A DNA stretch of 64,000 nt from Psammoneis japonica. Lineage: Eukaryota. Numbering within the stretch: the first letter of the stretch is position 1; each line of letters begins with the position of its first letter. Shown piece after piece: positions 1-62,050 of the stretch. The position numbers were made by a program, and so were the translations under genes. The notes beneath the pieces are model-generated. The model saw only the letters and a list, made by a program, of their open reading frames with translations, searched no databases and was not told where the DNA came from. The DNA lies in the NCBI GenBank assembly GCA_008632985.1, contig QPGO01000149.1, positions 1-64,000 on the forward strand, written 5' to 3'.

Positions 1-3000
1 CGGACGACTGGGCAAATTGGAGCACAGTTGTTGATTAAAATTGGTGCACACTTTGCATGATGAAAATTTCATTGCATGCAATTGCAATGTTTGGCTTGTC
101 GTTAAAGATCGTCAGTTGTTGTGAAAAAGGCAGAGCACAAAAATTAAAAAACATCTGTGTTCAAACATGAAGAACAGCAGGAGATCAATGATCCTAAATG
201 ACAAAAACTGTCATGTGCAGACAAGCAGATTTTATAATGTGGCAGTGTGTTTTTATCATGTGTGCAGATGTTGCTGTGTCGTGCACTCTGATGCACCCAC
301 TTGCATCACTCAAGCACTCCAAGCTGCTGCCACAAGCAGCATTGGGCCAGCAATTTGCTGGGTTCAGCCCCCAAACTCAGATGAGATGTTGCACTGCCTG
401 CTGCATTTGCAGGTGCTGAGCCTGTCATTTCACCTGGCACTCAAGCTTTAAGTGGCAACTTCACTTTGCATCAAAAAATGATGTGCCCCCATTGCCCATG
501 AGAACTCTCATGACTCTTGAGCTCTGCAGCCCTCCTGCAGCCTGACTCACCTCTCATCCCTGACTCTCTCTTGACCCACACAAGCTGCACCACTGCCTGC
601 TCATTGTGGGTGAAACCCAGCAGCCCTGCTCTGTCTGCCTTTGGGTCCAAGAGAACAAGCTTCCCACTGATCTTGCACAGCACCATTGCTCTGCTCCATG
701 CGCTGTGCATCTGCCAGCCATCTGTGTTTTGCTTTAGAGAGAGCAGGCAAGTTGGGGATGATTCAACAAATTCTGGCAGCAGCCAGTTCCCAAGATGTCA
801 CAAAGAGGAGCAAAACTGTCAAGGAACAGCACTTGGGACAAAAAAAGATTGGCTCCTCCTCTGATGGAGCAGCACTTGCCAGAGTTCTTGAAAAGCACAA
901 GCAGACTGTGAACCAAATCTCACATGAAAGAAATGCACCAGCCAGAGACAAGGGGACAAGAGAGATTTTGGAATTGCTGCAGAGGGTGCAGTGCAAGCCT
1001 CAAGAAGTTGAGTTTGTCAACCAACCATTGTGGAAGGTGCTCAAGGATCTTTTTCACGGCACCAAAAAAAGCTCACACCTGCCACTGAGGTGTTTGGACT
1101 TGTCAAACAACACCACTGTGGAGAGACAATGGAGACATTGCAATCAATTATGCCTTTTGGGAAGAGCCAGCCACGACATTGTGAAACTCACATCTCTGTG
1201 GCATCCAAAGTGTTGGCAATGAAATCAAGCATGTGTTTGTAAAGAATGTTCTGAGAAACTTCTTTGAAGCATGTTCACTTTCACAAAAAGCATGCCAACA
1301 AGTGGTTGGGAAACAATGTTCCACTTGCTCTTCATTCAACCCAAGAACAAGACTGGACGAAGCTGTCAGAAGTTGACAATTGGGCACAGGTGTGTTGGCC
1401 AACAGTGCTCACCCCCCTGCTCTTTTCTTGCTGCCAGCCCCCCCCAGAAAAAACTGGATGGTTGTGCTTCATGTCCTCTTGACTTCAGCTCCCAACTTTC
1501 CCATGCAAAGCCAACAGTGGGAGTTGACAACATGGCACTCTTCCTTGTTCTTCTCACCAGCAGTGCTCTTGAAATGAAACGACAAGGTCAGCAGCACATC
1601 AAAAGCTCCAAGTTAAATGCTGTTCTGCATGCAGAGTTGGGGGCAAAACTCATGTGATGTGCACCTCCTCAGCTGTCTGCCATGTGGAGCTTGCTGGCCA
1701 GTGAGCCAAAAACTGCTGAACAGCCAGGTGCCTTTTTTGCACAGCTGCACATGCCAAAATTGTGAGCCTCCATGCAAATCTGCTCAGTGCATTGACAAAA
1801 AGCTCTTTGTTTGTGCACCAATTGTGATCCAGCGATGCCACAAACTAGAATGCCCAGCTCACAACAGCCAGCCCAGCAGCTCCACTGCCAAACAAAATGG
1901 GAGCACAGCTGCCTCCAAATGCCAGGTTGGAGAACAAGGTCAGCGCAGGTTAAAAAACAAGTTTTGCTCAAACAACTCTAAGGATTGAGCAAGAACAGAC
2001 AACAAAACAGAGGACTCTGGGAGTTGCTGAGCAGATGATGACTGACTTGGGCTGGCATCTTCATTGCCAGCTAGCACTTGCTCCTTTGCACAAAAGAAGT
2101 GCTTGTCATGAGAGTCATGTGGGCTGGTGTGTGCACAAAACAGATGCATTTGGTTGAGATCACTCGAGTGCTTGTTGAGTGCTGGCAGCAGCGCGTGTGC
2201 ACTGGCTGCTCCCTTGTTCTCTCCACTGTGCAGCAGAGGACAGCTTGGGCATCATTGGCTTTTCCCCTGCCTGTGCCAAGCAGCAAAGTGGCTGACAGCA
2301 ATTTGGTGGGCTGCAAGTCGAAAATCCTCACACCACCCAAGAACTTTGAAGGGCAACGAAGTGCAGCTGCTTTGTTGGGGACAAACACACCAGCACTTTG
2401 GATCCCCAAAAGTCAGCAGCAAGTTGCTGAGGCAATGTGCCATGTTGTTGTTGGGGAGGATGAGGGGGAAAACTTGTGAGCTTTCTGAGCTCTGGTGGAC
2501 AGGGTGGCAAGGTCACCCCCCTGTTTCCACCCAGCATGGGCGCGCCAGTTTCTGAGTGGCAGGTGTGTGTGAGGCTGGTGCTGCAATGTCGTTTGCAATG
2601 GCTGGCAGAGTTTGGCCGGCTTGGTTTGCTGGGGTTTCTTTGCTTGGGTTTTTCTTGGCCTTTGCTCAGCTCCGCATCGAGCTGCTGGCTGGCACAGCCT
2701 TTTTTTGGGAGTTTGATTGGGAGGTTCGAAGTTCCTGTTGGTGTGATGAGCCCACACATGTGGCAAGACTAAAAAAATTGAAAAAAATGAGTCCTTTGTC
2801 CACCCATGCCAAGCAAACCACCCGAGCGGTTTTGAGCCTGTTGTTGTGATGAGCCCACTCTTGGCGAGACTCAAAAAATTGCAAACCACCCGAGAGCTTT
2901 TGATCGGTTCGGAAAGAGCAGCAAATTGCCCGAGCAGTTTTGAGCTGCACCGCACAACTAAAAAATTTAGTGTCATGAAGATAGAACAACTTTCAGAAAG

Positions 3001-26339: not shown

Positions 26340-27960
26340 TTCATGGTGTGTCAAATGATCGACGTGATTGTCCCATGGCAGAAGACTGATTTTTTAGAAA
26401 GCCAATGACCACCAGCAAGGAGCGAGCGAGATGAGCGGTCTTTGATTGTTCAAAGGTTGACCAAGAATGGGAGGCAACACCTGGCCCACACCATGTTGGC
26501 AGCACAGGCATGCTCATGAGTGACAGCTTGGTGGGCCTCTGCAATTAAGGTGCAGAGAGACTGTTGTGGAAGCCATGCCTGGGGAGGTGGACAGTGCACA
26601 CTTGCCAGGGGGGGCTTTGTTTTTGTTCTTGTGGCGCAACATGTGACAGAGTCACACAAGAACAAGGGCAGCTTTCACACATTTCAGAGATGCCACTGTT
26701 GCAGGCTGGCTGCTGGGAGGAGGATGCCAGTCACTGGGCCTGTCATGGTGACTGAGCCCTTTCCTTTGCAACTTGTGAGCTGGTGTGTGTGTTTTGTCAC
26801 AGCCCGCATGGTGGGCTGCATTTTCCCGCACATGTCAACCATGCTGCCTGCCACTGCCTCCTCTTGGAGCATCATGCCAGCCAGTTCAAGATCCAAATCA
26901 TTGATGACCCCACCCACCTGAGTTGGCATCTTGTGTGGCGCAGCTTTGAAGATCTGCGCCGGAGGCCGTCAGTGAGAAATCTTGTCATTTGGCCCCAGCA
27001 GCAAGGCACCTCTGAGCTCCAGTTTGGCAGCACTGGTGCAGGCACACCACAGAAGTGTTCTTTGGCAGCAGAAAAGAGTTTGGCCAGTTGTGTGGGGCAT
27101 GGCACCATGTCTGAAGCTGGCATTTGGCACCTGAGTCTGTGAAAGACATGGGAGAGTTTTGCAAGTTTGACAACATCACTGAAAATGCAAAGAAGGCACT
27201 CCTGGTGACATGGCAAAAGCTGAAAAACACAAAGCATCAATGATCCAACCCAGGATGACCCTGATGGCCAGCTATTTGGTGCCCCCCCCCCCCCCTCCTT
27301 CAAGAGCTTCTCAAGGGATGTGGTTTCTCTGCAGCAGCGGTCATTGGCTCACATGTTGAGCAAGCAGGAGAGCTGGTGGTTGTTGACATGGAGGCATTCT
27401 TGATGGCACAGATGATTGAGCCAAGCCTTGCAACCTTCTTGCATGACTCCAACATTGTTGTCTGGGTGAAGAACATCAAAATGTTGGAACTGCCTTCAGC
27501 TCTCAGCAGCATCTCTTCCATTGAATTGACTTTGGATCCATGAGCTTTTGCAAATGGCTGGCATGTGTTGGTTGGTCAGCAGGCAGAACATTGACTTGCA
27601 ATGCCTTGTCTCATGGGCTGCCACCTGCTCCAGTGGGTGCACTGGAGGAGGACCCCATGCAGCAGCTGTGCATGCATTGGCCAAATCCGTTGGTGCCCAC
27701 ACAAAAGCAAAACAGACTTTTGACCCAGCCCTTGGACAGAGCCAATGAAAAGGTGATGAGAGGCTCTTTGACCAGACCTTCCAGAGATGCCAAACCTGGT
27801 TTGGGTGTGTCAGCAGGCTTCAAGCCCACCCCAGAGAACCCGTTGGCATGACCCAGCTTCATGAGATAAAAACTGGAGATCTTGTGTGGGACTCGACCCA
27901 GCATGCATCTGAATTGCATGGCTTCTGGCATCTGTGAGTGGTCAAACAAAAAAGTGGAAG
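26340..27960 (-). mobile_element. Decayed retrotransposon remnant, probably DIRS/Ngaro-type RT-RNase H
   Basis: TA- and CG-depleted. Minus-strand fragments INDLDLELAG and NQSSAMGQSRRSF resemble the DIRS/Ngaro RNase H motifs (NSDLELAG; N.MAD..SR). Confidence 0.45.
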
Positions 27961-29359: not shown

Positions 29360-32300
29360 GCAGAGGTCCATTTGCAGAGCTCAAGCTCCAGACTCAATCA
29401 CCACTGGGGTGGGTGGGAGGATCCTTTTAAAGCTGTCTGCCAGCTGTTGGTGCAACAAAACAAAAAACGACAACAGAGAGGACGACCTCGTCAGCCGAGA
29501 GAGACATCGGCAATTGGCGGTCAGGCAAACAGCAAGCATTTGACATCTGTCCTTTGGGGGACAGACTTGAGCCAATCAACAGCCCTTGCATCATCTTCCC
29601 CATTCTGCAGTGGCTGCCTCCACTTCCAGCGGCACAGCCAAGAACGGCACCCCAGCTCTGACTCCAGCCAGCTGGAAGCAGAGGTCCATTTGCGGAGCTC
29701 CAGACCCAATCACTGGGAGCCTGACACACAGGCTCCCAGGCCCAGCTTTGATGAGGTTGCCAAAGGCAGACCAAACAAATTCGTGTGGGAAGGCAACATG
29801 GGCAGGAAGGGAAAGGTCTCAGCACAGGGGAGCTTCTTGGTTGTTGATGCATGAGCTGAGTTTTCACCTTGAGAGAGCCCCCGGGATAAGAAACTTTGCA
29901 TGGCAGGCTCAGCTTTGATGCAGAGACAGCACATTGTTTTGTCAGAGAAAGTGTCATTGTCCAATGAATGGGGGCAAGACTTGGCTGCACTGGTCGCACG
30001 GCACTTCATCAGGCTCATCATGATGTGGGGAAATCATGAGAGCCACTGTTGTGAAAAAGACATGTTTCATTCAAAACACACCAGTGTTTAAATGCTGTTT
30101 GCCTGGGAAACATGGCTGGCATTGTTTGTCATGCAGGCAAGGCTCAAAAACTTCTTTGCAGTCAATGGCAGAGTGTGTTTTGCCCAAATGGCTCATGGTT
30201 TCAGACCAGCATCTGGCATCTTTGGCATCACAGATTGTGGGACATGGGGCACCATCATCATCATGTGGATTGCAAATGGCCACAATGGCTGTCTTTGACA
30301 AAAGAAGCAGGAGAGAGAGTGCTCTCCTGGAGAAAAAAACCCCTCTCAGCTGGCACCACTGTTGAGCTGTGTGGCAAAGGTGGTTGCTGCTGCTGAAGAA
30401 AAGGGTGCTGCTGCTGCTGCTGCTGCTGCTGGAAACAAAGGGTGCAGCAGAGATTCACAGCAAAATTGTGCTCACAAGAAAAGATTCAGACCATCAACAT
30501 GTCATGAGATTGAAAAAATCCCTGCCATGCTCTCCTCAACAGAGACATGATGCTCCAGGAGCCAGCCCTGGGTGGGACTCTGTGTGACATGGGCCCACAA
30601 AATTCTGCATGGTGCAAGCTTTGCAGTTCATGCACCAGGCAATGGGAACATGTTTGTTTTCAACACCCAAATGAATGACCACACAATTGCCCCTCTTCAT
30701 GCTGGGTGTTTTTGAAAACCTGCTTCTGTTCCAGCACACACTCTGCAGACATTGAAAAATTGCTTTGGAGACAAGAAAACATCAAAAGTGGGTGAATGGA
30801 TTGCCCAACAATTGGGCTGCAAAATGACACAAAATGCAGCCAAAGTCATGCAGAAATGTGTGTGCATGTCACATGGTGCATGATAAAAAATGTCAGCATC
30901 ACAGTTCAGCCAGTGCTGCAAGGCCCCACCTGGAGCTCGGAGGCACCCAGAGCTGCCAACAATCCCTTGGAATGGTCAAGCCTTGCAGCACAAAAGCCTC
31001 ACACAACAAAAGGCTCAGTTTTTGCATGATGTCTCACCTGAGCAAACTCCCTGCTTCTCACTCAGATGGGCCCACACGGAATGAGAGTCAACATTCGTGG
31101 CAAGGGTTTTTCAACTCATTGTGTCCTGGAGCCTTCTTCTTGGCCCCAGCTTTTGCAGTGCCTCTCAGAAAGAGACTGTCACCACTGGCTTTTGTGAAAG
31201 TGCAAGAAGGAGTGTGCTCTCAAAGATTGAAAGTTGACTGTTAACCTGGTGCTGCTTTGTTTGTGATCAGCGTGATTGAACAACATGATGACCCCACACG
31301 TGGAAAGTGGAGGTGAGTTTCAAAGTAAAAGATTTGTCAATTTTTGCAGCAAGAACAAGAGATGAAGGCAGCTGCAAAACTTCCCTCTTCCTCAATCTGG
31401 AGGTGAGGTCTTGGGAGCTCACATGCTTTTGTCTGCTGCCAGCAGTGTGTGCTGTTCATTGCTGTTCTTGCAAGCCAGGCATTCATTGCAGTTGGCACTT
31501 TGCCAAACTGTCCCTGCCACAAGATGTTAACACAACCCACCTCATGTCCCTCCTTGAGCACTGCTGCTGCTTTAAGTCATCCCCAAGTGGCAGCAAAAGA
31601 TCTGGCATTGGAACAACTCCAGCAACTGCTCTGGCATTGGCAAACTTGGTTCAGGTCCTGGAGTTCTTGGGGGCAGCTGCAGCAAACACTCACAGTGAAC
31701 TCAGCTCAAGCCCTGGATGGAGCAAAGTGACTCAAGCAACTGTGCTGCCACCAGAGCACAGCCAACTGAAGCCCCCAGTCCCCGCTGGACATGCTGGCCC
31801 AACTCCTGCAGCCACAAAGAGCAGCAAACTCAGCTCAAAGACTGGGTGTGGTGGAGCCCTGGATTTGGCAGAGCAACTCCATCAGCTGCTGCCAGCAGCA
31901 AGCTTGTTGCCAGCCCTGGGCTGGTTGCTTGACTCCAGTGGCTGCTGCCAAGAGCACCACACAGCAGCACTTGCGCAGCGCACAGACCCACATTGGCAGC
32001 CTCCCTGTCCCACACCTGCTGGGTTTGGCTCAGACATTGGATGGAAAGATGGATCTCCTCCTTCCTCCTGCATTTCTCAGGCTGGCTCTGCCAGAATGGG
32101 CACAAGTCCTGAGTTGGGTGCTGGCTCGCTCATTGCGGAGAGCAGGTGGGAAAAAGCAGCACACACCAGCAGCACCCAATCCTGGCATTGGCAAGTGCTG
32201 GCTGTGCTGCAGCTGGCTGGCCGCACTTCTCTTGTGACATGCTGACAAAGCCTCAGATGTGGCAGTTTGTTGTGTTTTTGTCAATGGTGCTGCCATGGTG

Positions 32301-34229: not shown

Positions 34230-34449
34230 ACATTGTCTTGAGAATAATGTAGCTGGCTTTCCAGAAAGATGCTTGCCATTGTCGAAATGCACAAAAAATC
34301 TGAATAAGTTGAGGCGCCACCTTTTGGCTTGTTCGGGTCGTCGGAAGCCCTCGAGATTTTCCTGTGCACAGAACTGTCATTTCGCGTGGTTATGGGCAAG
34401 AAGGGGCTGCGTGTGATTTAATTTTGAGGTGCTGGTTTACCTTCCATTT

Positions 34450-35900
34450 CACACCTGCCAGTCCTGAACAACCCTTCTCTTGCTTGCCGACATGTCAAGC
34501 TCACTTGTCCGAGTGGCAAACTCTCTGCTTTCGTCCCAGTGTCCAAAAGTGTGAAATTGAGTCAGTCTTTGTTGAAGGCAAGCCTCTTCCTCCTTGGAAG
34601 CCATGTTTTTTGCTCCAGACGTTGTGCTGTTCTTGAACCCAATTTCTGAATGTGACTGTCCTTTGCTGTTGAAGTGTGGATGCTGTGTGTCCAGTGCCAA
34701 AGAAAGCAACAAACCCTTTCACATGTCTCATTTCATTTCAACCAGTTGTCTCCAGTGGGCATCACTGCAAGGTGGTGCAATGTCTGGCCAACTGCACTTG
34801 CTTCTGCTGCATCCCCAAGTGTGTGGGCTGGCTGGCACCAGCATTGCCAGGCAAAGGTGGGCTAAAACAGCACTTTGCACCAGTTTTTTTTTTTTGTGTT
34901 GACAAGCCCTCCTCTGGAGTGAGAGAATCTGCTCCCGTTGATTGATGATTTTCAACCGACAAACACCAGCATTCTCTTGGCATCCCACTCTTTGATGCAG
35001 TGGCAATGGTTTGTTTCACACAATGGCTTTTTTAACCTCAATTTCTTTTGGCAGCTTGTGAAAGTTGTGATGTTTGCCCATCCCAGCTCCAGCTTGCACC
35101 GATGATCAAAAGGACAGGTGGGGGTGACGGCTTGCTCCATGCTCTCAACTCTTGACATCAAGCTCCAACAAGCCTTAACCCCTGCCAATGTTTCCATGAT
35201 GTCTGTCATCATGGCCATGTCTTTTGCCTTGGGAGCATCATGGTTTTGCTGCATCACAGCATTGCCAACAACAGATGACGACACAGCATGGTGTGTGGCT
35301 CATTGCGCTCAATTGCAAACAAAGCCTGGATCATGACAATCCCAAAGAGATCACTTTGGACATGACTGTGCAGCAGAAGTGGAGCAACATAGAGTCCAGC
35401 AGGAAACCATCATGATCAGACATTGGGAAACCTGTGAAAAATCTGCATGTTCTGATGTGCGCCCACAAAGAGATCCATCAACCCACTGAACAGCACCGCA
35501 CTTAGACAGGGAGAGAGAGATTCTGTGGTCTGCTTGCACTGGCTGTGGTTGAGTCATTTTAGCATTGTCATGATGCTCTTTCAAGGCCGAGACTTTGTGC
35601 TCTCCTCAGTTTAAAACAAAGAGAGAAGCTCCTTTTTTGGGACTTCAGATGCTGCAGTGACGTGTTGGGGCAAGCAGCTGCATTGTGCTTCCACTTCAGT
35701 GCAGAATGTGGCACAAGAGTTTGAGTTCCCAAACACAGCTTTTTTGTCACAAAAGACATTGTGATCCCAGTGGTGCTTGCCAACTGATTCTTTGTCCTTC
35801 TAGCGTGCAGCCAGCAAATCGCACAATTTCATCAACTGAGCAATGATTGATCAGCAACAGTGGCAGGGGAGTGGAAATCCATGGATCTGCCCCTGCCCCG
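34450..35900. mobile_element. Decayed repeat/transposon tract of unassigned class
   Basis: TA- and CG-depleted block between two normal-composition genes. No credible ORF. Confidence 0.45.
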
Positions 35901-52365: not shown

Positions 52366-52562
52366 ATCGGAAAGGATGAAGACACCGGTGAGCCTGAGTT
52401 TATCGACTATGGACCCAAAGGAGGTCGTTAGGTTTGGAGCAGTTTGAGGACGATGCATGGGGAAACTACGACATGAGATTTTCAGCGGTACAGTGGTTGG
52501 TTTATTAGTTACGCCAAGCACGTTCTCCGATGGTAGCTTCAAAGTATAAGAAGTTAGGTTGC

Positions 52563-53678
52563 TCAAGAGCCCATGATAAATCCGTTCTCCGTAAATTCCA
52601 TTCTCTTTACTTGCTTCAGCAGCGCTGCTTTCCAGTCTGGCTCCTTCCCGCCGTGATACACCATTGCAAGCCCCAAACGAAGTCTGCAGTCTGGAAAGAT
52701 GTCTTTTGCCTTGGTTGCAAAGTCCCTCCGCGACAATCCCTGGTTCTCCTGGTAAAACTCGGTTACCTCGCGAACCACCTTGTTGGCAAATGAAGCCACC
52801 TGGTGCTGTAACTCACGCATTTGCTTCAATAATCCTGGCTGGTCTGCCAGGAGCTCAATCGCATCGTCTGCCTTGTCCTTGATCACAAGCTCAGCAAACG
52901 CTTTCGGAGAGACGACAAATGTTTTGACGCGGTGACGATGCAAGTACCAAGTGCACTTTTCCTTCCACCAGTTGCCGTATTCATCAACGACAACATAACC
53001 TTCCATGTCAGTTTCATTGTGTAAGGTGTTTAACTTGCAAAGCGGCTTGTGCTTAACAATGCATGATGCTGGAACCCGCTCTCTGAGCTGGTCATGCGAC
53101 AAGTATTTACCAGTGATGCGTGACCGAGCATTGAGAACAATCAAGCGAGGGTGATCATAATGCACAACGATTCGAAAAGTTGGGTCGGGAGACACCAACT
53201 CCATGTTTACGGTGAGATGCTCGTGCTCCAACCGTTCAATAGACCTCTTCAACTCCAAGTCTCGTTCGAGCAGTTCCTCTGCATAGAGAGCATGGTCGGA
53301 TTTTAATGATGTCTTGGATTTCAAGTGGAGTTCGCCACCGCCAGTCATGTAGGACGAGATTAACGAACCGTCAACCTTGTCCATAACAAACAATGGATGG
53401 CCGTAGTTGATAAAATCGACCTCACCCTTGTTGAAAAACTTTTTCATAGGACGAGACACGAGTGCATCAACGAGTTCAGGGTTGTCTTCTTTCATACGAA
53501 ACATGATGCCACGTGCCTCAAGCGCAGATGGCCTCAACCAAGTCTCTGGGTCAGCAAAGTGATATGAAAAGATGCGATATCGCTCACCATGTCGCTCTTG
53601 GTCCTTATGAAAGAATGGAGCGTCGCGGTCACTTGAGAGCGCCTTGAGCTCTTCATACAATTCTACTGCGTTTGTCAT
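52563..53678 (-). CDS. T4 Rnl1 (RnlA)-like ATP-dependent RNA ligase
   Basis: 371 aa, intronless, ATG 53678. ELYEEL, YRIFSY, ALEARGIMF, SRPMKKFFN, motif I KVDGSLIS, NMELVSP..RIVVHY, LNARSRITGKY, motif IV EGYVV and motif V KEKCTWY, in the same order and at similar length to T4 Rnl1. Confidence 0.9.
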   Translation of the reverse strand: MTNAVELYEELKALSSDRDAPFFHKDQERHGERYRIFSYHFADPETWLRPSALEARGIMFRMKEDNPELVDALVSRPMKKFFNKGEVDFINYGHPLFVMDKVDGSLISSYMTGGGELHLKSKTSLKSDHALYAEELLERDLELKRSIERLEHEHLTVNMELVSPDPTFRIVVHYDHPRLIVLNARSRITGKYLSHDQLRERVPASCIVKHKPLCKLNTLHNETDMEGYVVVDEYGNWWKEKCTWYLHRHRVKTFVVSPKAFAELVIKDKADDAIELLADQPGLLKQMRELQHQVASFANKVVREVTEFYQENQGLSRRDFATKAKDIFPDCRLRLGLAMVYHGGKEPDWKAALLKQVKRMEFTENGFIMGS

Positions 53679-53874
53679 TCTAAAAATACAGAGTCTTTGG
53701 AGATGCGGGAAAGTTAGGATTACGCCATCAACAGACCTGGCATTTGCCACTCAACTCGATTTATCCTTGTGTTGGAGGAGAGATGACTGCTTTTTGCAAT
53801 TATTCGGCTCACGCTCGTCACCACTATGAGTCCCGCATCCCGCACATTTGAGACGTGTTTCGATCTTGGGTGAC

Positions 53875-54076
53875 TGTGATTTGATTGTAGCTATTCTGCT
53901 GTTGTAACAATCAAAGGGCTAAGAAAATTGTGTGTTAAAATAGAATGTGAACTTTTAAAGTGCGTAGTTGGTCTCTTGTCGGAAGTAAGTGCGTCAGTAA
54001 AGAATCTAGCTCTTGAATCAAGTTCAAGGACTAGGACAGTTCGCCTGTCTGTCCGTTTGACCCTAGATTCATCACA
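53875..54076 (-). repeat. 3' LTR
   Basis: TGTGAT...ATCACA; 193/202 identical to 59695..59896. Confidence 0.95.
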
Positions 54077-54085
54077 CTCCCTCTC
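54077..54085 (-). other. Polypurine tract
   Basis: GAGAGGGAG on the minus strand abuts the 3' LTR. Confidence 0.85.
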
Positions 54086-54109
54086 AAGAGCCAATGCAGC
54101 GTTGTTTCC

Positions 54110-57100
54110 TTACCAACCAAGTATGAACTTTCGATGCCGAACGAGCAACTCTAGTGACAAAGGCTTGGTCAAGCAATCTGCAGGCTGAGCCTCGGTGTCA
54201 ATTTTCACTATCTCAATCTGTCCGCTCTGGACATGTGACCGGAAGTGGTGCAACTTGACATTGAGATGCTTTGTACGAGGTCGGTACTTGTGGACTCGCG
54301 CCATCTCTAGCGCACCGCTGTTGTCCTCGAACACTCTGCAATGGATCTTGGGTTCCGCTCGATCGATCGGAAAACCCTCTGCTTTCAATTCTTTCAGCAT
54401 CTCCATCAAAGGGATCGCCTCTCGCAGGGCACAGCTCAGTCCCGTGTGTTCGCTCTCAGTTGAAGAGAGACACATTTCTCCCTGTAATTGGGATTTCCAC
54501 GTGACCGGACATCCACCGTACATAATGACATATCCATGTCTGGACCTTGCAGTGTCTGGATTCGAAGTGTCACTCTTGTCGAAGTTCCCCGCAAAATCCG
54601 CATCCACATAAACCTCGAGTTCCTTGGACTTGGTTGGCCGCATCATAATTCCTTTGTCCCTCGTTCCCATGAGATGCCTGCCCAACCACCTGATTGCCTT
54701 ACCGTGCTCGACTTTTGGAGCTGCTGTGAACCTCGCGCACTGGTGAATCATGCATGAACAGTCACTTCGGGTGCCACGCTCCAAGCAATTCAATTTTCCA
54801 ACCATGCTCCGGTGGTCGAAGCTGTTGTCAAAGTCTTCTGAGTCTTGGTGTCGACCCAAAATCATGGATGATGCAGCTGGAGTGTCTTTCGTCTTGGTGT
54901 TCTTCTGGAAGTTCAGTTGCTCCAGAATTTGATCGACAAGGTGAGGTTGCATCAGATGTGTCATCCCGTCCGCTTTCCTGTCGATGTTCATCCCAAGAAA
55001 ATCTTGAATGTCGCCTTCCTCCGTTGTGTTTAGGTCTGCGCTTTGTGTGTCTTTCACGACTTGATCAAGCTCCTTTTCATCTGGACCAGCAAGCAAAGAA
55101 TCATCCGTGTGGAGGACGCATGTGCACTTTCCTCAGAAGAAGACGCACTCATCACATTTCGACTGCTTGAAGCCGAGCTTGTTGACAAGTTTGTCCACGA
55201 GACAGTCGTTCCACACTCGGCCAGCTTGTTTCTGACCATGTGCATTTCGATGGAGTTCGAGCACATGGTCCTCCGAGTTGCCATCTTCTACCTCGAATCC
55301 CTTGGGAATTTTCATGTGGATCTCTCGCTTGACTGGGGCCTGCGGAAACGCTGGCACGCAATCGAGTTGCTTGGTGTGCCAATTGTTCATGGCCGAGAGA
55401 ATTGGCAGCATTCGGATCGAGCTCCACGAGGCTGCAGGTGCGTGTGTCCTGTCCGGATTGTAGTGAATTGACTTTTTCATCCTTGACCCTTCGATGTTGA
55501 GCCTCGCCTTGTACTTTTTGACTTTTCTCATCTTGACATCGCGTTTCCGCTTCATTTGCCACACTGCAGGTGATGCTGTGGCATCCTTGGGGATCTCGGA
55601 AATGTGTCTCACCGAGAAGTTTCGGTTCCCGATCTGATCTTGGAATTCTTTTTCCATCGCCTTGACGAACTCCTTCGCATCTTTTTCCTTCATCGCTTCA
55701 TGGTGGTGCATGGCATCTGGGTCCGCCGTCGACTTGCAGGCATGCAAGGGATCTTCTTCGGATGATTCTTGTTGAGGACAGAGAGATTCGAATCCGAAGA
55801 TCTCTCCCTCTGTCTCTCCAATGCATTCTTCAGCTCTCGCCAGCGACTCGGCGGCATGTCTTGGGTTCGGTCTACTGACACGTCCCGATCTGGTCGTCAC
55901 CAGAGGTGCGTTGCGTTGCGCTGCGTCTTGTTGTTGTGCTGGAGCTTCCACGTTAGCAGCGCGCTGTGGGTCTGCCTCCTGAGCACTGGTTGGGAGGTTG
56001 CTGTCCTCCCTCTGAGTTGGCGATTCGTTCTCGCCTTGTGCTCCATTCAAGCTCGACCCATCAGGCTCTTGGTCTGTTGGTCGGCTGTCGTTGGCACTCA
56101 ACCACATGGGTTGTTCCCTAGAGGATTTTCGTTTTCTCCTCTTCTTGTGGCTCTTCTTGTTCGTGAGCCTCACGCTGTTTTCGCGTTTTCTGTTGTTGGG
56201 GGTCTCGGATGCTCCGTCAGCCTGGCCATCGGCTGGTGGATCTTCAAAGCCTGCTTTGGCCTTCCATCCGATCTTCCAGCGCTCTTGTTGAGCTGTGTGA
56301 AAACTCGGGTCGAATCTCACATGGAATTGTGGGCTTGCTCGTCCTGTTTCGATGTCGAGGACAAGCGCTGCGTTTCAGCAGTGCACTGGCGATTGGCCAA
56401 GGTAAATTCCCACGTTGGACCTTTGCTTCCACTTGTTGAAAATGTTTCCCGTCTGAAGTGCTTCTTCTAGCACCGCCACAGGACACCCAAAAGGGTGACA
56501 GTGTTTTGAGTTTACATCCACTGCGGATGAAGTGAACAGCTGGCATGCGCTTCGGCTCGCTGGATCTTTCAGCAGCGGCGTCTCGTTCAGCGCTTGATTT
56601 GCCATTCGCAATGCGTGCGGCCAGAGGTGAGGCGAGATGGCTTGTGGCCACCTCTTGTTCGCGTGAATCAATTGCGTTCTCGCCAGGTCTTGCAGATCTC
56701 GTATTTTCTTCTCTGCAGTTCCATTTTGATGATGCACATTCACTCCGGCAAAGGCAAGTCCCTGCCTTTGTTCTCGAACTGCGTTCACCCATGCCTTCAC
56801 CTTGAAAATGCCGTTGTCGGCATGACAGTGTCGGATTTTGATTCCACTTTCTTCTGCATGCTGCTCAAATGCTCTCTTCCCTCTCAACGTCTCTTCAGCA
56901 GAGCTCGTTTGCTGGAGGCACACGCACCCGTAGCCTGCAGCTTGGTCAACGTACACAGTCGCACAATTGCAGTGGTTTTTGGCAAGTGTCCCCGTGTTCT
57001 GTGCTGCCAGTCCAGGTGTGCTCGAGACCAGCATGTCGACTGACACGACTTGTCCCGGTCTCATAGGTGCAATTTTGTTCCTGCTCTTTTCGGTCCTTGG

Positions 57101-58387
57101 TCTCCATGGGCGCTTTGTTTGCTTCCCACAAAGGCATGCCGAGCAGACTGGGGCTGGGCACTTGGCCAGCGTGGGATCGATGAGCCTCATTTTCGCCATC
57201 TGTTGCAGGCACTTGAATGACATGTGACTGAATTTGTGATGCAGCTTCAGCAGTTTGGTGGTTTTTGTTTCTTCACCTCCATCTTGTCTGTCTTCCTCGT
57301 CTGGAACAACTGCCGCCGGACTGTCTTCATCCTTCTCCCCTTGCAGATCAAATTCGGTCTGCCGTGGGGCGGCCCAGTCGATGGGTTGGGCCGCGGTGTC
57401 CAATGAGTGTAGACCCACTTTTTGAAGGTGGGATTCTGAGAGCGTTTCGTCGTCAGCCTCGTCATCGCTAACAAGGTGAGCTTCAGAATCGTGTGCGATC
57501 ACAGGATCGTCCTCGTCGTTCGCTGAAATTTTTGCCTCTTGACAGAAAGCATCGTGTTTGGAGCAGCCGGGAGCCAGGGCGAACGTGGCGACGTTTGATT
57601 TCGTTTTGTCGATCGGCATGGTTAGCTTGTGCGAATGTTGGTTCCAACACAAAACCGTTGCACAATGGTTGGTGGTCTCCCCTGTCCCGCCAACTGCGTC
57701 TTTTTGAGATTGCGCCCAGTGTTGTGGACTGAGCAGTCGCGCATCCTCGTCCGTGGGCACGCAGAACGAGTTGGGGATGCGAAACTTGTGTCGTTTTCCA
57801 GTGTCGTCTAACCAGTTCCATACGATTGTGCCAATCATAACTCCTTTCGTTCGTGTTCCTCCGAAACCCTTGATGCAGCGATTCGATTGTCGCAATGGGC
57901 CTTCGAAATCTTCGATGAACGAAGAAATGCATCCGGAACAGCGATTGTCAACGCCGACCGGGCCTCCATCAGTGTTGAAAACGACGTCATTCGTGCGTGC
58001 TGGGCAGGTCTGAGCTTTGAATGCCAAAGCCGTGCATGCGGTCCATACATTGCGAATGCCTCGTGCCAAGTTCCATCGAGTGTACTTACGGCGTCGACAC
58101 TTCACAATTGCTCCCTCTAGGGAGCAAATCCGTGCTCGCATGGCTTGTGCCTCTTTCCCGTTCGGGCCACTCTCCCCCGTCCACACAGGATTAACGAGTT
58201 TTCGGCGCTGTCGGGATCGATCTCGGCGTTCATGACGACTCTTGTTCCTAGATTTTCGTCGGTTCATCGGATTGGGCCGGATTGGTGAAAGGCAGGCTAG
58301 AATGTACAGCAATGGCGACCAGATCGTCTCATGGGACTCATGGGCTGCTCCTGTCAATCGCCTCCTCCACGTGGGTGACGTTGACAG
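54110..58387 (-). pseudogene. pol: Copia pol (protease, integrase, RT, RNase H) with in-frame TGA stops at 56375-77 and 55133-35
   Basis: VGVDNRCS (PR); HHKFSH..CSAC, VSVDML, HADNG, HHQNGTAE (IN); KARLN, GQKQAGRVW, HTDD (RT); YVDADFAG, FEDNSGA, QPADCLTKPL (RH). All three ORFs are in one frame. Confidence 0.92.
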
Positions 58388-59665
58388 TCATTCCGTATCC
58401 GAAGATGAATCGTCTCCGCCGTTCTTGATCGCTTCCATAGCTTGTGAAATGCGGACGGTGTTCTTCGTCGTACCGTGCTGCTCGTTGTCTTCTTCATCCC
58501 TCTTGGGAATGAATCCGAGTCCTTTGCAATCCTTGGGATGGTGAATTCGCCACTTTCCACCACATTTTCCTCCAGTGATCTTGTCACACCAATGGCACGG
58601 CTTGCCTTTCCACACGATGGGGATCTTTTCTTTACCCTTCGCCGGTGGTTTGGCAGGACCCTTCTCCCTGCGATGCCTTTTCGAGGGCTCGCGTCGTTTC
58701 TTCTTGTGAGCCTTTTTCTTTTTCTCAAGGCTCGCAATCTTGGCTGACAGAGCAACAATCTGCTCCTCTTGAGGATCGGGAGCATTCCATTCTCCATTTT
58801 CCTTCATCATCTTGAAGCGCTCGTTTGCCACATTCATGATGTCTTCAGGAGTCATGTCTTGTCCCTCATCACACTGCTCCTTCTTCCTGCCAATGCAGTC
58901 AACGAACTTCTTGTCCGATGCATTGGCATGTCCCTTGAAGAGGTTTGCCAACAAGTCTTCTCTAGTCTCCCCTCGCGCGGCAAGCGCCTTCGTCATCATG
59001 AGTGCATGCTGATTGAATTTTGTGATGTCCGAGTTGATCGCATGAATGTGCTTGTCCAGCGATGACAACTTGGATCTGATGCTGGACGTTTTCGCATTCG
59101 AATCGAGATGGCTCTCGCGAATGATGACCTTGAGGAGCAGACATGCAGATGGACGTTTCTGTTGGATGGGATCTCCTTCCCTTGGCTGGAGCATGCACTC
59201 CTTCTTGTGCATCAAGATCTTGTTTAGTGCCTGGGTGTCGAGACTCGCCATCAGACACGAATGGAACATGTGATTGTCCTGTGTCGCACGTCCTTCTTCG
59301 AAGAGGTAAGCTCTCTCGTGTTGCTCAATTTGTTCCACAGTGAGCTGTCCGCAGTTGTCTGCCAGATAAACACGATCACTGTCTTGCTCTTCGGGGTTCA
59401 AGTCGACCAGCAGAATGGACAATTCATGCTCGTCGTTGTTCCATCTGTAATTGCCCGCACATTCATCAATTGCCTCCAGAAACGAGAACAAACTCTCTGG
59501 CGTGCAATCGAACAATTCTTCACTGAGTTTGTGCGTCGCTCTTTCGTAGAGCTTCCTTCCGGATGTTCTCCGACAGTCGATTACGCCGGTCATGGCACCC
59601 ACTGGCGTGAATGCAAATGGGACATCCTCTCCAGCAGCTGATGCGCTGCCATCAGAATCCGCCAT
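58388..59665 (-). CDS. gag: Copia gag
   Basis: 425-aa ORF starting just after the PBS. LLKVII, DITKFN, LFKG, GEWNAP and a C-terminal HWC..C..W..H....C knuckle. Confidence 0.85.
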   Translation of the reverse strand: MADSDGSASAAGEDVPFAFTPVGAMTGVIDCRRTSGRKLYERATHKLSEELFDCTPESLFSFLEAIDECAGNYRWNNDEHELSILLVDLNPEEQDSDRVYLADNCGQLTVEQIEQHERAYLFEEGRATQDNHMFHSCLMASLDTQALNKILMHKKECMLQPREGDPIQQKRPSACLLLKVIIRESHLDSNAKTSSIRSKLSSLDKHIHAINSDITKFNQHALMMTKALAARGETREDLLANLFKGHANASDKKFVDCIGRKKEQCDEGQDMTPEDIMNVANERFKMMKENGEWNAPDPQEEQIVALSAKIASLEKKKKAHKKKRREPSKRHRREKGPAKPPAKGKEKIPIVWKGKPCHWCDKITGGKCGGKWRIHHPKDCKGLGFIPKRDEEDNEQHGTTKNTVRISQAMEAIKNGGDDSSSDTE

Positions 59666-59671
59666 GGCACA

Positions 59672-59694
59672 ATCAGCTTAGCGCAGAGGAAGCG
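59672..59694 (-). other. Putative primer-binding site complementary to the 5' end of initiator tRNA-Met
   Basis: The + strand reads ATCAGCTTAGCGCAGAGGAAGCG, which looks like tRNA-iMet nt 1-23 (acceptor 5' strand plus D arm), and abuts the 5' LTR. Confidence 0.6.
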
Positions 59695-59896
59695 TGTGAT
59701 TTGATTGTAGCCATTCTGCTGTTGCAACAATCAAAGGGCTAAGAAAATTGTGTGCCAAAATAGAATGTGAACTTTTAAAGTGCGCAGTTGGTCTCTTGTC
59801 GGAAGTGAGTGCGTCAGCAAAGAATCTAGCTCTTGAATCAAGTTCAAGGACTGGGACAGTTCGCCTGTCTGTCCGTTTGACCCCAGATTCATCACA
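59695..59896 (-). repeat. 5' LTR
   Basis: TGTGAT...ATCACA, followed by GGTGAC. Confidence 0.95.
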
Positions 59897-59969
59897 GGTG
59901 ACTGAAAATTGTTCCAACGCATTCCACGTTTGCGGTCTCGCTCCAGCTGCTGCTAAAGCCTGCATTTAG

Positions 59970-62050
59970 TCAATTGGCGCTTCCAATGAAAGTCAGCAGC
60001 AGCACCAACATCGTCTTTGGATGCTCATCCATCGGGTGTCATTTGTCATTTCGACACGGGAAGTGAGTCGATGGAGCATTGCAGGTGGGTGCATCCGCGA
60101 AGGGCTTGCTCAAGTCTTGCTCAAGTTTTCTTCTTGTGCATCGGTTTCTTCTCACCACAATCAAGTGCATCATTGTTGTTGTCTTGGAGACGATCACATT
60201 TCTCATCCCAAGTGACCATGTCAGTGACCTTCCTGGCTTTTAAAAATGATGATCCCGTTGGCTGGCTGCCGGTCAATCCTCATCAGCTTTGTTGCATTTA
60301 ACCACTGGGTGCTCCCCTTGAGTTTGTCAAAAGGGTGGTCTCTTCAAAGGGAATCTCTGGCATGTGGACAGAAAGAGAATCTAAAAAGAGTTGAGTGACC
60401 ATCAACCTGAGTGTGAGACAGCAACCAAGGCTGAGTCTTTGCCTTTCCTTCGTGATCTGTGTGCATGACAAAGAAGCTCACATCTGTTGAGTGTGGCATG
60501 ACAGAAAAGGCTGAAAGTTGTTGCTGTCATTGCACTGTGTGTGTCATTGACAATTTCTTGAAGAGTTCTCCTCTCCCTCTGCCCTCCTGTGCCTTTTCAA
60601 TCAACTTTCTTTGCAAAAACGCCCGCAAACAACCGAGCAACTGAAGAAAAGCAGAATTGGAGAATGTCTGGTCAACAGAGCAAATGCAAAACCTTCTTGA
60701 ATTCTGTGGGGCTTTCATTTTTGTCTGGGAGATGAGAACTTTGAATCTCACCTGCTGACTTCCATGACAAAGGGCCTGCCATAAATTGGTGTTTCCCACA
60801 TTTTCCTCTTTGCGTTGTTTCTGATGCACTGACAACAAACACATGCGGGGCTTCATTCTTTGACCATTTGGGGTGTCCTGTTTTGCTGCAATGCATGGTG
60901 AGGAGGTTCTTCAAACAAGCAGAGTCCAGCTTTTGAATTTCCACAAGTTGGCTCATCATGCAAAGCAGAGCTGCTGATTGTTGTGAGCAATGGCCATCAT
61001 GTTGGGATTCAACAATTGAGCTAGTGAGAGTTGATGATGCAGTCACCCTCCACTTGTCAGACATGTGCACTCTCATTGGCCTGGATGGAAATGAGTGCAA
61101 TGGGCAGCTCAACCTTGCATTTGCTTCAGGAGGAGCTGATGACCACCCAGGCATTCTTTTGTGGATTTTGTTGTGTGCAACACCTGTTTGGTGAAGTTGA
61201 GTGTGAAAATGCACAGAATTGTCATCACATTTGCAGCATTTTTGTCTCTGTGTGTTTTTGTTGTTTTGCAATGGGGGTCTTTCACGAGTTTCGACCAGTG
61301 CTGCATTTTCATTTTTAAGACTTTCTCTCAGTGAATTTTGCAGCTGAACCATTTTTGCTGTTTGGCTCAAATCTTCTGTGATGTGGATTCGATGAAGGCT
61401 CTGCCCCCTGCACAGTGCATGGAGAGCTGGGATTTTGTGATGTGAATTTGCTGCGGATGTGTCAATGGCGGCTGCCAGGCCAAAATCAACTTTGACCCAG
61501 AGGTGCAAAGCATCCTTTTTTGAAGGCCATCCTTGACATGCAGAAAGTTTGTCACCATTTGGGTGTTGCACCCAGATGGGCTGTACAAAGTGCAACTCTC
61601 TAGCCTTCTTGTTCTGGGTGGAGACATGGGATTGACACGTCCCCAGGTGCACGCCAGATGCTTTTGGGCAGGGGAAAGTCACCCCTGTGCTGTTTTGCCA
61701 CAAGAGTTTCAGATGCTTGGCAAAAGCACCAGACAGGACCCTCTTTTTGATGATTGAAAGCACAAGATGTGGTGGAGGAGACCACTTGTTTGCATGGGAA
61801 TTCTTCCCTGCTCCATTGTTGTGACATCACGTGTCTGACCCACAAAGCACAAAAATGCCCTCCCTGGCCAGGAGGAGCAGCTGTGGTGTGAATGTCTCCT
61901 GTGCACAACAACACAGGATCTCTGTTGGCTCATCCAAGAGCAAAGGCCGTGTCAAACCCAAGAAAAGACAAGATCAAAAAGCACGCGCTGGCAAGTTGTG
62001 ATGGTCAGTTGTGGTTGCTTTGTGGCTGGATCCAATCAGCTGTCACATCC
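59970..62050. mobile_element. Decayed repeat/transposon tract of unassigned class
   Basis: TA- and CG-depleted. The minus ORF 60672..61763 is His/Cys/Gln-rich and nearly Tyr-free. Confidence 0.5.

Follow-up and report, generated by a model that had tools for sequence, protein, structure and literature searches.

In a Copia retrotransposon of the 64,000-nucleotide stretch of DNA analysed here (the window), CA or TG now stands at about four in five (about 72-80%) of the former TA sites. The changes run from TpA towards CpA and TpG, are specific to this dinucleotide and are confined to the element. A host process that turns TpA into CpA or TpG in integrated mobile or foreign DNA, acting after integration, is the probable cause. 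A preliminary description of this DNA knew of no account of such a process; however, the same A:T>G:C hypermutation, at TpA only, has been described in a 2026 preprint for integrated viral DNA of a distant rhizarian alga, Bigelowiella natans, and interpreted there as a defence against invaders (Mettrop et al., bioRxiv 10.64898/2026.01.13.699255). Full-text literature searches yielded no other report of DNA-level, TpA-specific A:T>G:C hypermutation of invading DNA. What is new here is that hypermutation of the B. natans type occurs in a diatom-like host, with an LTR retrotransposon as its target.

Structure of the element and comparison of its LTRs

A repeat search returned a single pair of direct repeats, 202 nt each and 96% identical (Table 1). 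Two LTRs, a target-site duplication, a polypurine tract and one frame running from gag through integrase to RVT_2 identify a Ty1/Copia element, the purine tract that abuts the 3' LTR being the putative polypurine tract by its position and composition. Pfam analysis of the gag-pol frame, in which the observed/expected ratio (o/e) of TA is 0.18, recovered the gag_pre-integrase domain, the retroviral SH3-like domain and RVT_2. The best 120 full-length homologues of the polyprotein share 46-56% identity with it, those with names are from diatoms, and we take the element to belong to the diatom CoDi-like lineage, CoDi being a lineage name from Maumus et al. 2009. Because it lies on the minus strand, the left-hand repeat is the 3' LTR.

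Table 1. Coordinates of the Copia element, its parts and the TA/CG-poor blocks in the window
Feature	Position	Strand	Basis or remark
Target-site duplication, left copy	53869..53874	.	GGTGAC (6 bp)
3' LTR	53875..54076	-	unmutated version, 13 TA; repeat pair and base-by-base comparison
Purine tract	54077..54085	-	GAGAGGGAG (element strand); abuts 3' LTR
Single gag-pol frame	54113..59665	-	1851 codons, three in-frame TGA
Reverse-transcriptase domain RVT_2	54878..55606	-	residues 1354-1596; Pfam
Catalytic motif HTDD	55100..55111	-	YTDD in 119/120 homologues; TAC>CAC
In-frame TGA	55133..55135	-	Arg in 84/120 homologues; fits CGA>TGA
In-frame TGA	56375..56377	-	Arg in 96/120 homologues; fits CGA>TGA (CpG>TpG)
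In-frame TGA	58388..58390	-	gag/pol boundary
5' LTR	59695..59896	-	8/13 TA now CA or TG and one adjacent T>C, 5 TA left; LTR comparison
Target-site duplication, right copy	59897..59902	.	GGTGAC (6 bp)
Block B1	1..2600	.	TA/CG-poor, CA/TG-rich
Block B2	26500..27900	.	TA/CG-poor, CA/TG-rich
Block B3	29400..32300	.	TA/CG-poor, CA/TG-rich
Block B4	34400..35700	.	TA/CG-poor, CA/TG-rich
Block B5	59950..62000	.	core TA 4.7 and CG 10 per kb
Open frame inside B5	60672..61826	-	384 codons

Compared base by base, the LTRs differ at 9 of 202 sites, every one a transition. At eight of them the 3' LTR has TA where the 5' LTR has CA (six) or TG (two), and the ninth (53935) is a T adjoining a TA site (TTA vs CCA); no CpG differs between the LTRs, each of which holds five. 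On these differences, and in the naming of the 3' LTR, the preliminary description was right. The TA count is 13 in the 3' LTR and 5 in the 5' LTR. With 26 of the 202 positions lying within TA, the probability that at least eight of nine differences fall there by chance is 6e-7, and the TA side is the same LTR in 8/8 cases (two-sided p = 0.008). If TA is ancestral, all nine are A:T>G:C transitions. The 3' LTR was thus wholly spared (0/13 TA changed, vs 8/13 in the 5' LTR), and TA loss is also weaker in the last ~600 bp beside it (about 1-3 TA per 100 bp); neither observation is predicted by a simple model in which the whole element is targeted.

The asymmetry bears on a different, rather unlikely origin, in which a TpA-preferring host deaminase, APOBEC3-like but acting on adenine, edits single-stranded cDNA during retrotransposition, so that the copy integrates already mutated. 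Following the scheme of reverse transcription, plus-strand strong-stop DNA ends up as the 5' LTR; mutation of the 5' LTR alone, with 7/9 changes being A>G on the element's sense strand, would fit editing of this DNA while displaced. In the APOBEC3G scheme, however, exposure should be greatest just upstream of the polypurine tract, and here that stretch is the least mutated.

Polarisation against homologous polyproteins

The 120 homologous polyproteins were used as the outgroup for polarising changes. Conserved Tyr was kept at only 4 of 25 columns and was replaced by His at 10 and by Cys at 9, whereas other conserved residues were kept at 403 of 437 columns (Fisher p = 7e-18); at a looser conservation cut-off, Tyr was kept at 7 of 35 columns, 14 having become Cys and 11 His. 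TA was therefore lost rather than gained, as the preliminary description had argued from six peptide strings with His or Cys in place of Tyr, all of which are present in the translation, with Tyr at these positions in the homologues. For 42 of the 55 conserved columns that differ, a one-base change could be assigned: 16 TA>CA, 12 TA>TG, 6 CpG>TpG/CpA and 8 other. A:T>G:C changes account for 29 of the 42, and 28 of these 29 are at TpA (16 to CA, 12 to TG), which bears out the earlier claim of TpA specificity with both CA and TG as outcomes.

The RNA-ligase gene and the flank to the left of the element have a normal TA density, which drops inside the element, to 9.6 per kb against a background of 34.2 per kb; CA+TG rises by roughly the amount by which TA fell, and CG is unchanged (60.5 vs 59.2 per kb).

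The presence of both outcomes also bears on ADAR-like A-to-I editing of the retrotransposon RNA, fixed by reverse transcription, which we consider highly improbable. U before the edited A is favoured by ADAR and ADAT enzymes, according to the B. natans preprint, and A>G clusters in retroelements are known in mammals (PMC4866542). Sense RNA, however, would give sense A>G only, while 11 of the 25 lost Tyr are sense T>C, and the two LTRs would integrate as identical copies, yet nine sites differ. To our knowledge, ADARs are animal proteins. Editing of cDNA is likewise at odds with a body heavily mutated on both strands (14 Cys vs 11 His), which is unlike a one-strand pattern.

Other copies of the element in an independent run

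Contigs (not reads) of an independent run, X1, were compared with the window. One X1 contig joins 53868 to 59897, that is, it holds the empty site at the Copia locus, and the insertion is still polymorphic and young. X1 depth is 113-351 over the element and 57-60 over its flanks, the element being multi-copy in X1, and the longest X1 pieces over it, among those listed, all differ from the window copy (for example by 34 letters in 1600). In total, 113 X1 contigs showed 179 transitions and 20 transversions relative to the window. Among the 40 of these 199 differences that were listed, 28 events lie inside the element, comprising 10 adjacent TG<->CA doubles, 10 sites with TG or CA in the window and CG in X1, 4 TA singles and 4 others.

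The informative TG<->CA doubles derive from an ancestral TA, as judged from the homologues: one ancestral TA became CA in some X1 copies where the window has TG, and the reverse. Thus, Tyr1408 is His in the window copy and Cys in X1, and Leu1365, Leu1438 and Ile1377, which still read Leu, Leu and Ile in X1, are Ser, Pro and Val, respectively, in the window copy. Such opposite outcomes at the same ancestral TA mean that the copies were mutated separately, although editing of cDNA would also predict independent mutation of copies made from a TA-bearing progenitor.

The opposite outcomes also make a sequencing or base-calling artefact at modified bases of the assembly unlikely, and we regard this explanation as scarcely credible. 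The assembly is imperfect, with one N in the window and small indels relative to X1 in block B5, which add up to 19 gap letters over about 2.6 kb. Against an artefact, B5 is present in X1 with only 8 other letters over the same length, the contigs of X1, a run that also shows the empty site, hold further copies altered in the same manner, and the same Tyr>His/Cys pattern occurs in proteins of unrelated ENA and JGI assemblies.

The signature in elements of other assemblies

A survey of 26 conserved Tyr columns in 240 homologues found His or Cys at none of them in 190 proteins, at one in 40, at two in 6 and at four in one. Three of the 240, from other public assemblies, bear the Tyr-to-His/Cys signature: P0082 (1419 aa; 16 of 26 conserved Tyr now His/Cys), P0236 (16 of 18) and P0142 (7 of 18). 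The signature therefore occurs in further elements of further assemblies, drawn from unrelated ENA and JGI entries. The DNA of P0236 was compared with its unmutated relatives L001-L006 at positions where the relatives agree. Among 95 differences, 42 fit TA>CA/TG and 12 fit CpG decay, the rest being 15 other A:T>G:C, 4 other G:C>A:T, 13 transversions and 9 ambiguous changes.

When the four hypermutated elements were pooled, Tyr>Cys (sense A>G) exceeded Tyr>His by 47 to 27, a bias that would favour editing of cDNA. Evidence for runs of same-strand mutation was weak in the window copy (longest-run permutation, p = 0.018-0.03), and in P0082, P0236 and P0142 such runs were not significant in the run permutation.

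TA- and CG-poor blocks and the decay of CpG

The window also holds five sharp-edged blocks of 1.2-2.9 kb that are nearly without TA and CG. They contain 0.8-6.7 TA per kb (TA o/e about 0.05-0.2) and 211-229 CA+TG per kb, against a background of 34 and 140 per kb, respectively. Between block B5 and the mutated 5' LTR lie about 100-300 bp, and the frame inside B5 is longer than any in 200/200 Markov-1 simulations; no credible homologue of this frame was found. No recognisable foreign origin of the blocks was found in the form of Pfam hits, terminal repeats, Copia remnants or credible homologues, and within the window no similarity of the blocks to each other or to the Copia element was detected. 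Judged by composition alone, the blocks may be tied to the process that removed TA from the element; TA-poor blocks with no retroelement features would not be expected from editing of cDNA.

Decay of CpG is present in the element too, in 6 of the 42 polarised changes and in the two TGA stops at which homologues have Arg, and in three places a Thr codon ACG of another Copia copy reads ATG (Met) in this one. Every CG-poor segment of the window is also TA-poor, whereas the young Copia element is TA-poor with normal CG, and the unrelated metagenome Copia relics L008 and L009 have a CG o/e of 0.04-0.05 with normal TA. The two processes are therefore separable. It is a doubtful conjecture that a single system removes the two self-complementary YpR steps, TA and CG, from foreign DNA that has been marked; one deaminase, for instance, might act on adenine when T precedes it and on (methyl)cytosine when G follows, the TA/CG-free 'fossil' blocks might account for a considerable fraction of the intergenic DNA of diatoms, and the whole might be an ancient, editing-based immunity of SAR common to diatoms and chlorarachniophytes.

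Comparison with known systems

Mutation-accumulation lines of B. natans showed 231 mutations in two integrated viral regions, of which 230 were A>G or T>C, and every one of these 230 lay at TpA. They appeared de novo in the nuclear DNA of some lines only, while these grew clonally, and 124 TpA-poor, CpA+TpG-rich clusters, mostly unannotated, are present in the genome (10.64898/2026.01.13.699255). The likeness to the present case, so far as the accessible text of the preprint goes, lies in near-exclusive A>G and T>C change at TpA giving TpG or CpA, in its limitation to integrated foreign or mobile DNA at a rate far above background, and in the long-term TpA-poor, CpA+TpG-rich clusters, here represented by the five blocks without a Pfam hit. 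The differences are that the host there is a chlorarachniophyte and here a pennate-diatom-like stramenopile, that the target is a DNA virus insertion there and an LTR retrotransposon in few copies here, and that de novo mutations were observed directly there whereas the evidence here is comparative. TA depletion is also deeper here (o/e 0.18 in Copia and about 0.05-0.2 in the blocks, against 0.45 in the NCLDV region), and the CpG loss of the old blocks has no counterpart mentioned in that text.

Fungal RIP similarly disables mobile elements copy by copy through dinucleotide-specific transitions on both strands and leaves skewed dinucleotides. However, RIP turns CpA into TpA, raising TA and AT and making stop codons, whereas the present process removes TA, raises GC, cannot make stops and removes TAA and TAG. 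The reversed polarity, with Tyr codons TAY becoming CAY or TGY and a TA o/e of 0.18, rules RIP out. Decay of methylated CpG to TpG/CpA does occur here and has gone nearly to completion in the five blocks, but it is unable to yield TA>CA/TG; the preliminary description was correct in setting the pattern apart from both.

APOBEC3 and ADAR editing of vertebrate retroelements resembles the present case as deaminase-type hypermutation of integrated LTR elements with a neighbour-base preference (PMC4866542). APOBEC3 converts C>U on minus-strand cDNA, seen as sense G>A, and ADAR converts A>I in RNA, seen as sense A>G only; here changes at TpA only are found on both strands and the LTRs differ. There is no excess of non-CpG G>A, which accounts for only 2 of the 42 polarised changes and rules out C>U editing of cDNA of the APOBEC type, and the 11 Tyr>His beside 14 Tyr>Cys, together with the nine LTR differences, disfavour RNA editing of the ADAR type.

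Proposed mechanism

The process that we favour would convert A:T to G:C at TpA, on either strand, in a diatom-like nucleus and at a rate far above background. Each new Copia insertion would be mutated on its own after integration, 72-80% of its TA having changed in the short time since the polymorphic insertion, and Tyr codons would be destroyed, the catalytic Tyr of YTDD among them. Slower CpG>TpG/CpA decay would come after TpA loss, and the end state would be blocks like the five in the window, nearly devoid of TA and CG, in which every YpR step is CA or TG. The mutation-accumulation result in B. natans and the LTR asymmetry suggest action in situ on nuclear DNA, and the LTR differences, the unlike outcomes at a shared TA in different copies and the polymorphic state of the insertion are indirect hints that the changes may arise during clonal growth. 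That published case, as described in the accessible part of the preprint, concerns integrated DNA viruses in clonal lines, without reverse transcription, which argues against editing of cDNA.

The most likely chemistry would be TadA/ADAT2-like deamination of adenine after T, as the preprint proposes. Oxidised thymines can mispair with G, and a thymine-directed chemistry (TET/JBP-type oxidation of T at TpA or another T modification) or a mismatch-repair bias to G:C is an improbable substitute for adenine deamination. TpA is self-complementary, so T>C gives the same CA and TG as A>G and the two are indistinguishable in sequence; adenine deamination by an ADAT2-like enzyme is, however, the sole published proposal for the signature, as far as the preprint's accessible text goes.

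The preliminary description had proposed a repeat-targeted genome-defence system. The signature does look like that of a host process against mobile or foreign DNA, but targeting of repeats is unsupported: repetition as the trigger is unproven because the five blocks are mutually dissimilar and the main target of hypermutation in B. natans is single-copy (10.64898/2026.01.13.699255).

Significance

The footprint in a diatom-like genome suggests that the process is widespread in SAR protists and not a one-species curiosity. It moves the search for the enzyme, and for the signal that targets it, toward diatoms, in which CRISPR knockouts are established and DNMT5 knockouts have been reported in P. 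tricornutum. Since the TpA process cannot make stops and removes TAA and TAG, dead copies keep long open frames that are predicted as proteins and pollute protein databases, as with P0082. Insertion ages will be overestimated from LTR divergence, and TA-rich integrated transgenes may be open to mutation in the same way.

Structure of the Copia element

The element at 53875-59896, located on the minus strand, is a complete LTR retrotransposon of the Ty1/Copia type, and its parts are listed below together with five TA- and CG-poor blocks of the window (B1-B5). Pfam analysis identified gag-pre-integrase, retroviral SH3-like and RVT_2 domains in its polyprotein, which shares 46-56% identity with the 120 best full-length homologues; the named ones among these belong to the diatoms Cylindrotheca and Chaetoceros, and Fragilaria occurs among the shorter matches. 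No close family members were present in the protein database (top identity 55-56% for full-length matches and at most 64% for fragments), and tblastn searches with five homologues as queries revealed no further Copia remnants in the window. An RNA ligase ORF (RNA_lig_T4_1 and T4_Rnl1_C; 52563-53750, minus strand) with normal TA and CG lies immediately to the left.

Features of the Copia element and TA-/CG-poor blocks in the window
Feature	Position	Strand	Remarks
3' LTR	53875-54076	-	202 bp, repeat search
5' LTR	59695-59896	-	202 bp, repeat search
Target-site duplication GGTGAC			6 bp, both sides of Copia
Purine tract			adjoins 3' LTR
gag-pol frame	59665 down to 54113	-	1851 codons, three in-frame TGA
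B1	about 1-2600		TA-/CG-poor
B2	about 26500-27900		TA-/CG-poor
B3	about 29400-32300		TA-/CG-poor
B4	about 34400-35700		TA-/CG-poor
B5	about 59950-62000		TA-/CG-poor

Divergence of the two LTRs

Base-by-base comparison confirmed the LTR pattern reported in the preliminary description. Nine of 202 sites differ between the two LTRs, each by a transition; at eight of these the 3' LTR carries TA and the 5' LTR carries CA (6) or TG (2), the ninth being a T adjacent to one of the eight TA sites, and none of the five CpGs per LTR differs. TA occurs 13 times in the 3' LTR and 5 times in the 5' LTR. The probability that at least eight of nine random differences would land in TA positions is 6e-7, and that of TA falling on the same LTR in eight of eight cases is 0.008. 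All TA of the 3' LTR were spared, and the last ~600 bp before it are less TA-depleted. The reverse polarity, a RIP-like change of CA to TA in the 3' LTR, was rejected, since it is contradicted by outgroup polarisation and since the TA content of the 3' LTR (13 in 202 bp) resembles that of unmutated relatives.

Direction and TpA specificity in the coding region

The pol part of Copia was aligned with the 120 homologues, and columns shared by at least 85% of them were taken as conserved. Copia keeps 407 of 462 such columns; conserved Tyr was kept at 4 of 25 versus 403 of 437 for the other residue types (Fisher p = 7e-18), the lost Tyr being replaced by His (10), Cys (9), Phe (1) and Ala (1). With a 60% cut-off, 35 Tyr columns were obtained, comprising 7 kept, 14 Cys, 11 His, 2 Phe and 1 Ala. 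The catalytic motif itself reads HTDD in Copia, and the Tyr of YTDD is found in 119 of 120 homologues. Only 15 Tyr remain among the 1851 residues of the whole polyprotein, and over the aligned pol part Tyr makes up 0.8% in Copia versus 3.4% in the homologues.

Among the 55 conserved columns that differ, a single change could be assigned in 42, namely 16 TA>CA, 12 TA>TG, 6 CpG>TpG/CpA and 8 other changes; at least two base changes are required in 11 columns, and 2 are ambiguous. The internal region of Copia contains 9.6 TA per kb versus 34.2 in the background, with CA+TG raised by 24 per kb and CG unchanged (60.5 versus 59.2 per kb). Both the homologue polarisation of Tyr and the composition thus indicate that TA was lost, not gained, which was the direction proposed at the outset, and the TpA specificity that had been left to a substitution spectrum is borne out by the resolved changes, in which 28 of 29 polarised A:T>G:C transitions lie in TpA context. 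In the 54 TA retained in Copia, CTAG and GTAC are slightly over-represented, in numbers too small to count, and the mutation outcomes weakly suggest same-strand clustering.

Empty site and other copies in an independent run

X1, a public sequencing run bearing the same organism label as the window, is available as contigs that contain 64% of the sampled words of 53000-62500, and was compared with the window over 52500-62500. One X1 contig joins 53868 to 59897 and represents the empty site, with a depth of 60 versus 57-60 in the flanks. Because an empty allele exists, the Copia insertion is polymorphic between strains or haplotypes and therefore young; both flanking contigs stop at the junction, and the insertion allele may also be present in X1 alongside the empty one. 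Depth over the Copia region reaches 97-351, indicating a few other copies, and the longest X1 pieces listed over Copia all differ from the window copy (e.g. by 34 letters in 1600 and 7 in 436).

Over all 113 contigs, X1 and the window are separated by 179 transitions and 20 transversions. At least 28 events inside Copia could be counted among the 40 listed of these 199 differences, including at least 10 adjacent doubles (window TG versus X1 CA or the reverse), at least 10 sites with TG or CA in the window and CG in X1, at least 4 single TA differences (2 in each direction) and at least 4 others. Homologue polarisation traces the informative TG/CA doubles to ancestral TA. The same TA sites have taken either outcome in different copies, which implies a TA-bearing progenitor and separate mutation of each copy and argues against an assembly artefact; the preliminary description had allowed for active copies already carrying His or Cys at these positions, and the X1 comparison instead argues for the TA-bearing progenitor.

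Residues of the window copy and X1 at four positions of the Copia polyprotein
Position	Homologues	Window	X1
1408	Tyr in 119/120	His	Cys
1365	Leu in 109	Ser (TCA)	Leu (TTG)
1438	Leu in 87	Pro (CCA)	Leu (CTG)
1377	Ile in 101	Val	Ile, preceding codon changed instead

Elements from other assemblies

A total of 240 homologues from other assemblies were scored at 26 conserved Tyr columns. His or Cys was found at none of these in 190 homologues, at one in 40, at two in 6 and at four in 1. The remaining three, database proteins from public ENA and JGI assemblies, had far more, with His or Cys at 16 of 26 (P0082), 16 of 18 (P0236) and 7 of 18 (P0142) conserved Tyr, and P0082 and P0236 also showed Val>Ala, Leu>Ser, Ile>Thr/Val and Thr>Ala, as expected from TA>CA/TG. 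All three Copia ORFs are long and uninterrupted. Stop codons cannot arise by TA>CA/TG, so that hypermutated copies, although dead, retain long ORFs and enter protein predictions.

Seven relatives of P0236 on metagenome contigs (L001-L007), with 73-86% protein identity, are unmutated (TA o/e 0.59-0.80; Tyr 3.2-4.2% versus 0.14% in P0236). When P0236 was compared with the codons of L001-L006 at positions where these relatives agree, 95 differences were found, of which 42 fit TA>CA/TG and 12 fit CpG decay, the rest being 15 other A:T>G:C, 4 other G:C>A:T, 13 transversions and 9 unresolved. Genomes other than that of the window thus also carry the signature. The check for LTR pairs in L003 and L004 yielded solely 100% identical terminal overlaps and was uninformative.

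CpG decay and the TA-/CG-poor blocks

Ordinary CpG decay has also affected the window copy of Copia, as follows from the sites with TG or CA in the window and CG in X1. Thr1379, Thr1568 and Thr1572 are read as Met (ACG>ATG), and two of the three in-frame TGA codons stand at positions where the homologues have Arg (96/120 and 84/120). Two distant Copia relics on other metagenome contigs (L008, 1-1019; L009, 11-667) show CG o/e of 0.04-0.05 and normal TA (0.76), with 19 stops in the former and 1 in the latter. These relics represent classical CpG decay without TpA loss, and the two processes are thus separable.

The cores of B1-B5 contain 0.8-6.7 TA, 5.9-11.7 CG and 211-229 CA+TG per kb, versus 34, 59 and 140 in the background, with o/e down to 0.05 for TA and 0.06 for CG, and the blocks together comprise roughly 10 of the 64 kb. 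Pyrimidine-purine steps as a whole are as frequent as in the background (226-238 versus 233 per kb), as expected if transitions alone had acted. The block edges are sharp, within 100-300 bp, TA loss extending further out than CG loss, and CG-poor segments with normal TA were not found in the window. No similarity was detected among the blocks past short chance matches, nor to Copia, and no convincing terminal repeats were seen at their edges. Pfam analysis of 30 window ORFs, block ORFs included, left the blocks without a match; one DUF445 match (E = 0.0099) fell far short of its cut-off and was disregarded.

B5, which begins 100-300 bp from the 5' (mutated) LTR, contains a 384-codon open frame without Tyr (60672-61826, minus strand), a length that no frame in 200 Markov-1 simulations equalled (longest 301). 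Its sole match, the database protein P0242 (E = 3e-8), was rejected as an internally repetitive, junk-like ORF, and no credible homologue was found among 1.84 billion representatives; the frame may descend from a gene that has since mutated heavily. X1 also contains B5, in a version that differs at 8 letters and by 19 gap letters over about 2.6 kb; B5 therefore predates Copia. The small insertion differences, together with the single N in the assembly (window 4606), suggest some indel errors or strain differences.

Mechanism and precedent

A TpA-specific A:T>G:C process strikes each Copia copy separately, affects both strands and stops at or inside the Copia ends. It runs far faster than ordinary substitution: the LTRs have no non-TA difference save the adjacent T>C while TA is heavily changed (8/13 in one LTR and about 72-80% in the Copia body). 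Its trigger could be repetition, foreign origin or a chromatin state that spreads out of B5. At the self-complementary TpA, attack on A and attack on T give identical outcomes.

The process put forward in the preliminary description is real; no description was known there, but a preprint of 2026 describes the same kind of process. In mutation-accumulation lines of Bigelowiella natans, 302 new nuclear single-base mutations were recorded, of which 231 fell in two integrated viral regions, at a rate of about 6e-7 per site per generation, and 230 of the 231 were A>G or T>C, all of those at TpA; the TpA mutations occurred in some lines only (Mettrop et al., bioRxiv 2026). Of the two viral regions, the larger one is transcriptionally silent and occurs as a single copy; 124 clusters of windows poor in TpA and rich in CpA+TpG, for the most part without annotation, were found in the genome, and adenine deamination by an ADAT2-like enzyme was proposed, with the U-before-A preference of ADAT and ADAR being cited (Mettrop et al., bioRxiv 2026).

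That a B. natans-type mechanism also operates here is the best explanation of these data, and integrated Copia copies would then undergo TpA-specific A:T>G:C mutation by the same mechanism. B1-B5 are read as old insertions, in which the slower CpG decay would also have been completed. Action on integrated DNA is suggested by the differences between the LTRs, by the effect on both strands (14 Cys versus 11 His) and above all by the published precedent. Editing at the cDNA stage, which we regard as unlikely, agrees less well with changes on both strands and with the precedent from DNA viruses, although it would explain why LTR changes are confined to the 5' LTR, 7 of 9 being sense-strand A>G, and why Tyr>Cys is somewhat more frequent than Tyr>His (47 versus 27) across four elements.

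Diatoms, retrotransposons and CpG are not mentioned in the accessible text of the B. natans preprint (Mettrop et al., bioRxiv 2026), which was the sole report of the TpA signature found by a full-text literature search. The literature search returned no description of RIP-like or hypermutated elements in diatoms, and no prior diatom description was found in the accessible text of Maumus 2009, Hoguin 2023 and a 2025 diatom transposable-element preprint. The kind of process was first described in 2026, and the Copia case adds to that kind and is not wholly new. New here are the host group, the targeting of an LTR retrotransposon, the independence of individual copies, the asymmetry between the LTRs, how deep the TA depletion goes, and the combined loss of TA and CG in blocks read as old, over roughly 10 of the 64 kb of the window.

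Remainder of the window

Elsewhere the window is densely packed with genes and contains MCM, DnaJ, lycopene cyclase, ADH-type dehydrogenase and RNA ligase; the best named matches of the MCM8-like ORF are from Nitzschia, Pseudo-nitzschia, Phaeodactylum, Mayamaea and Fistulifera (47-62% identity), which suggests a pennate-diatom-like host. A 2537-codon open frame without Pfam match (44051-51664, plus strand) occupies a GC-rich stretch (54-58% GC), opposite a 1577-codon open frame (45763-50496, minus strand). The DnaJ-domain ORF of 1394 codons (10731-14915, minus strand) overlaps opposite-strand open frames at 12079-14610 and 12372-14519 (both plus strand). This stretch has low TA, CA/TG that is not raised and an extreme AT skew of -0.52 at 12-14 kb, and its low TA looks like a composition effect and not a hypermutation footprint.
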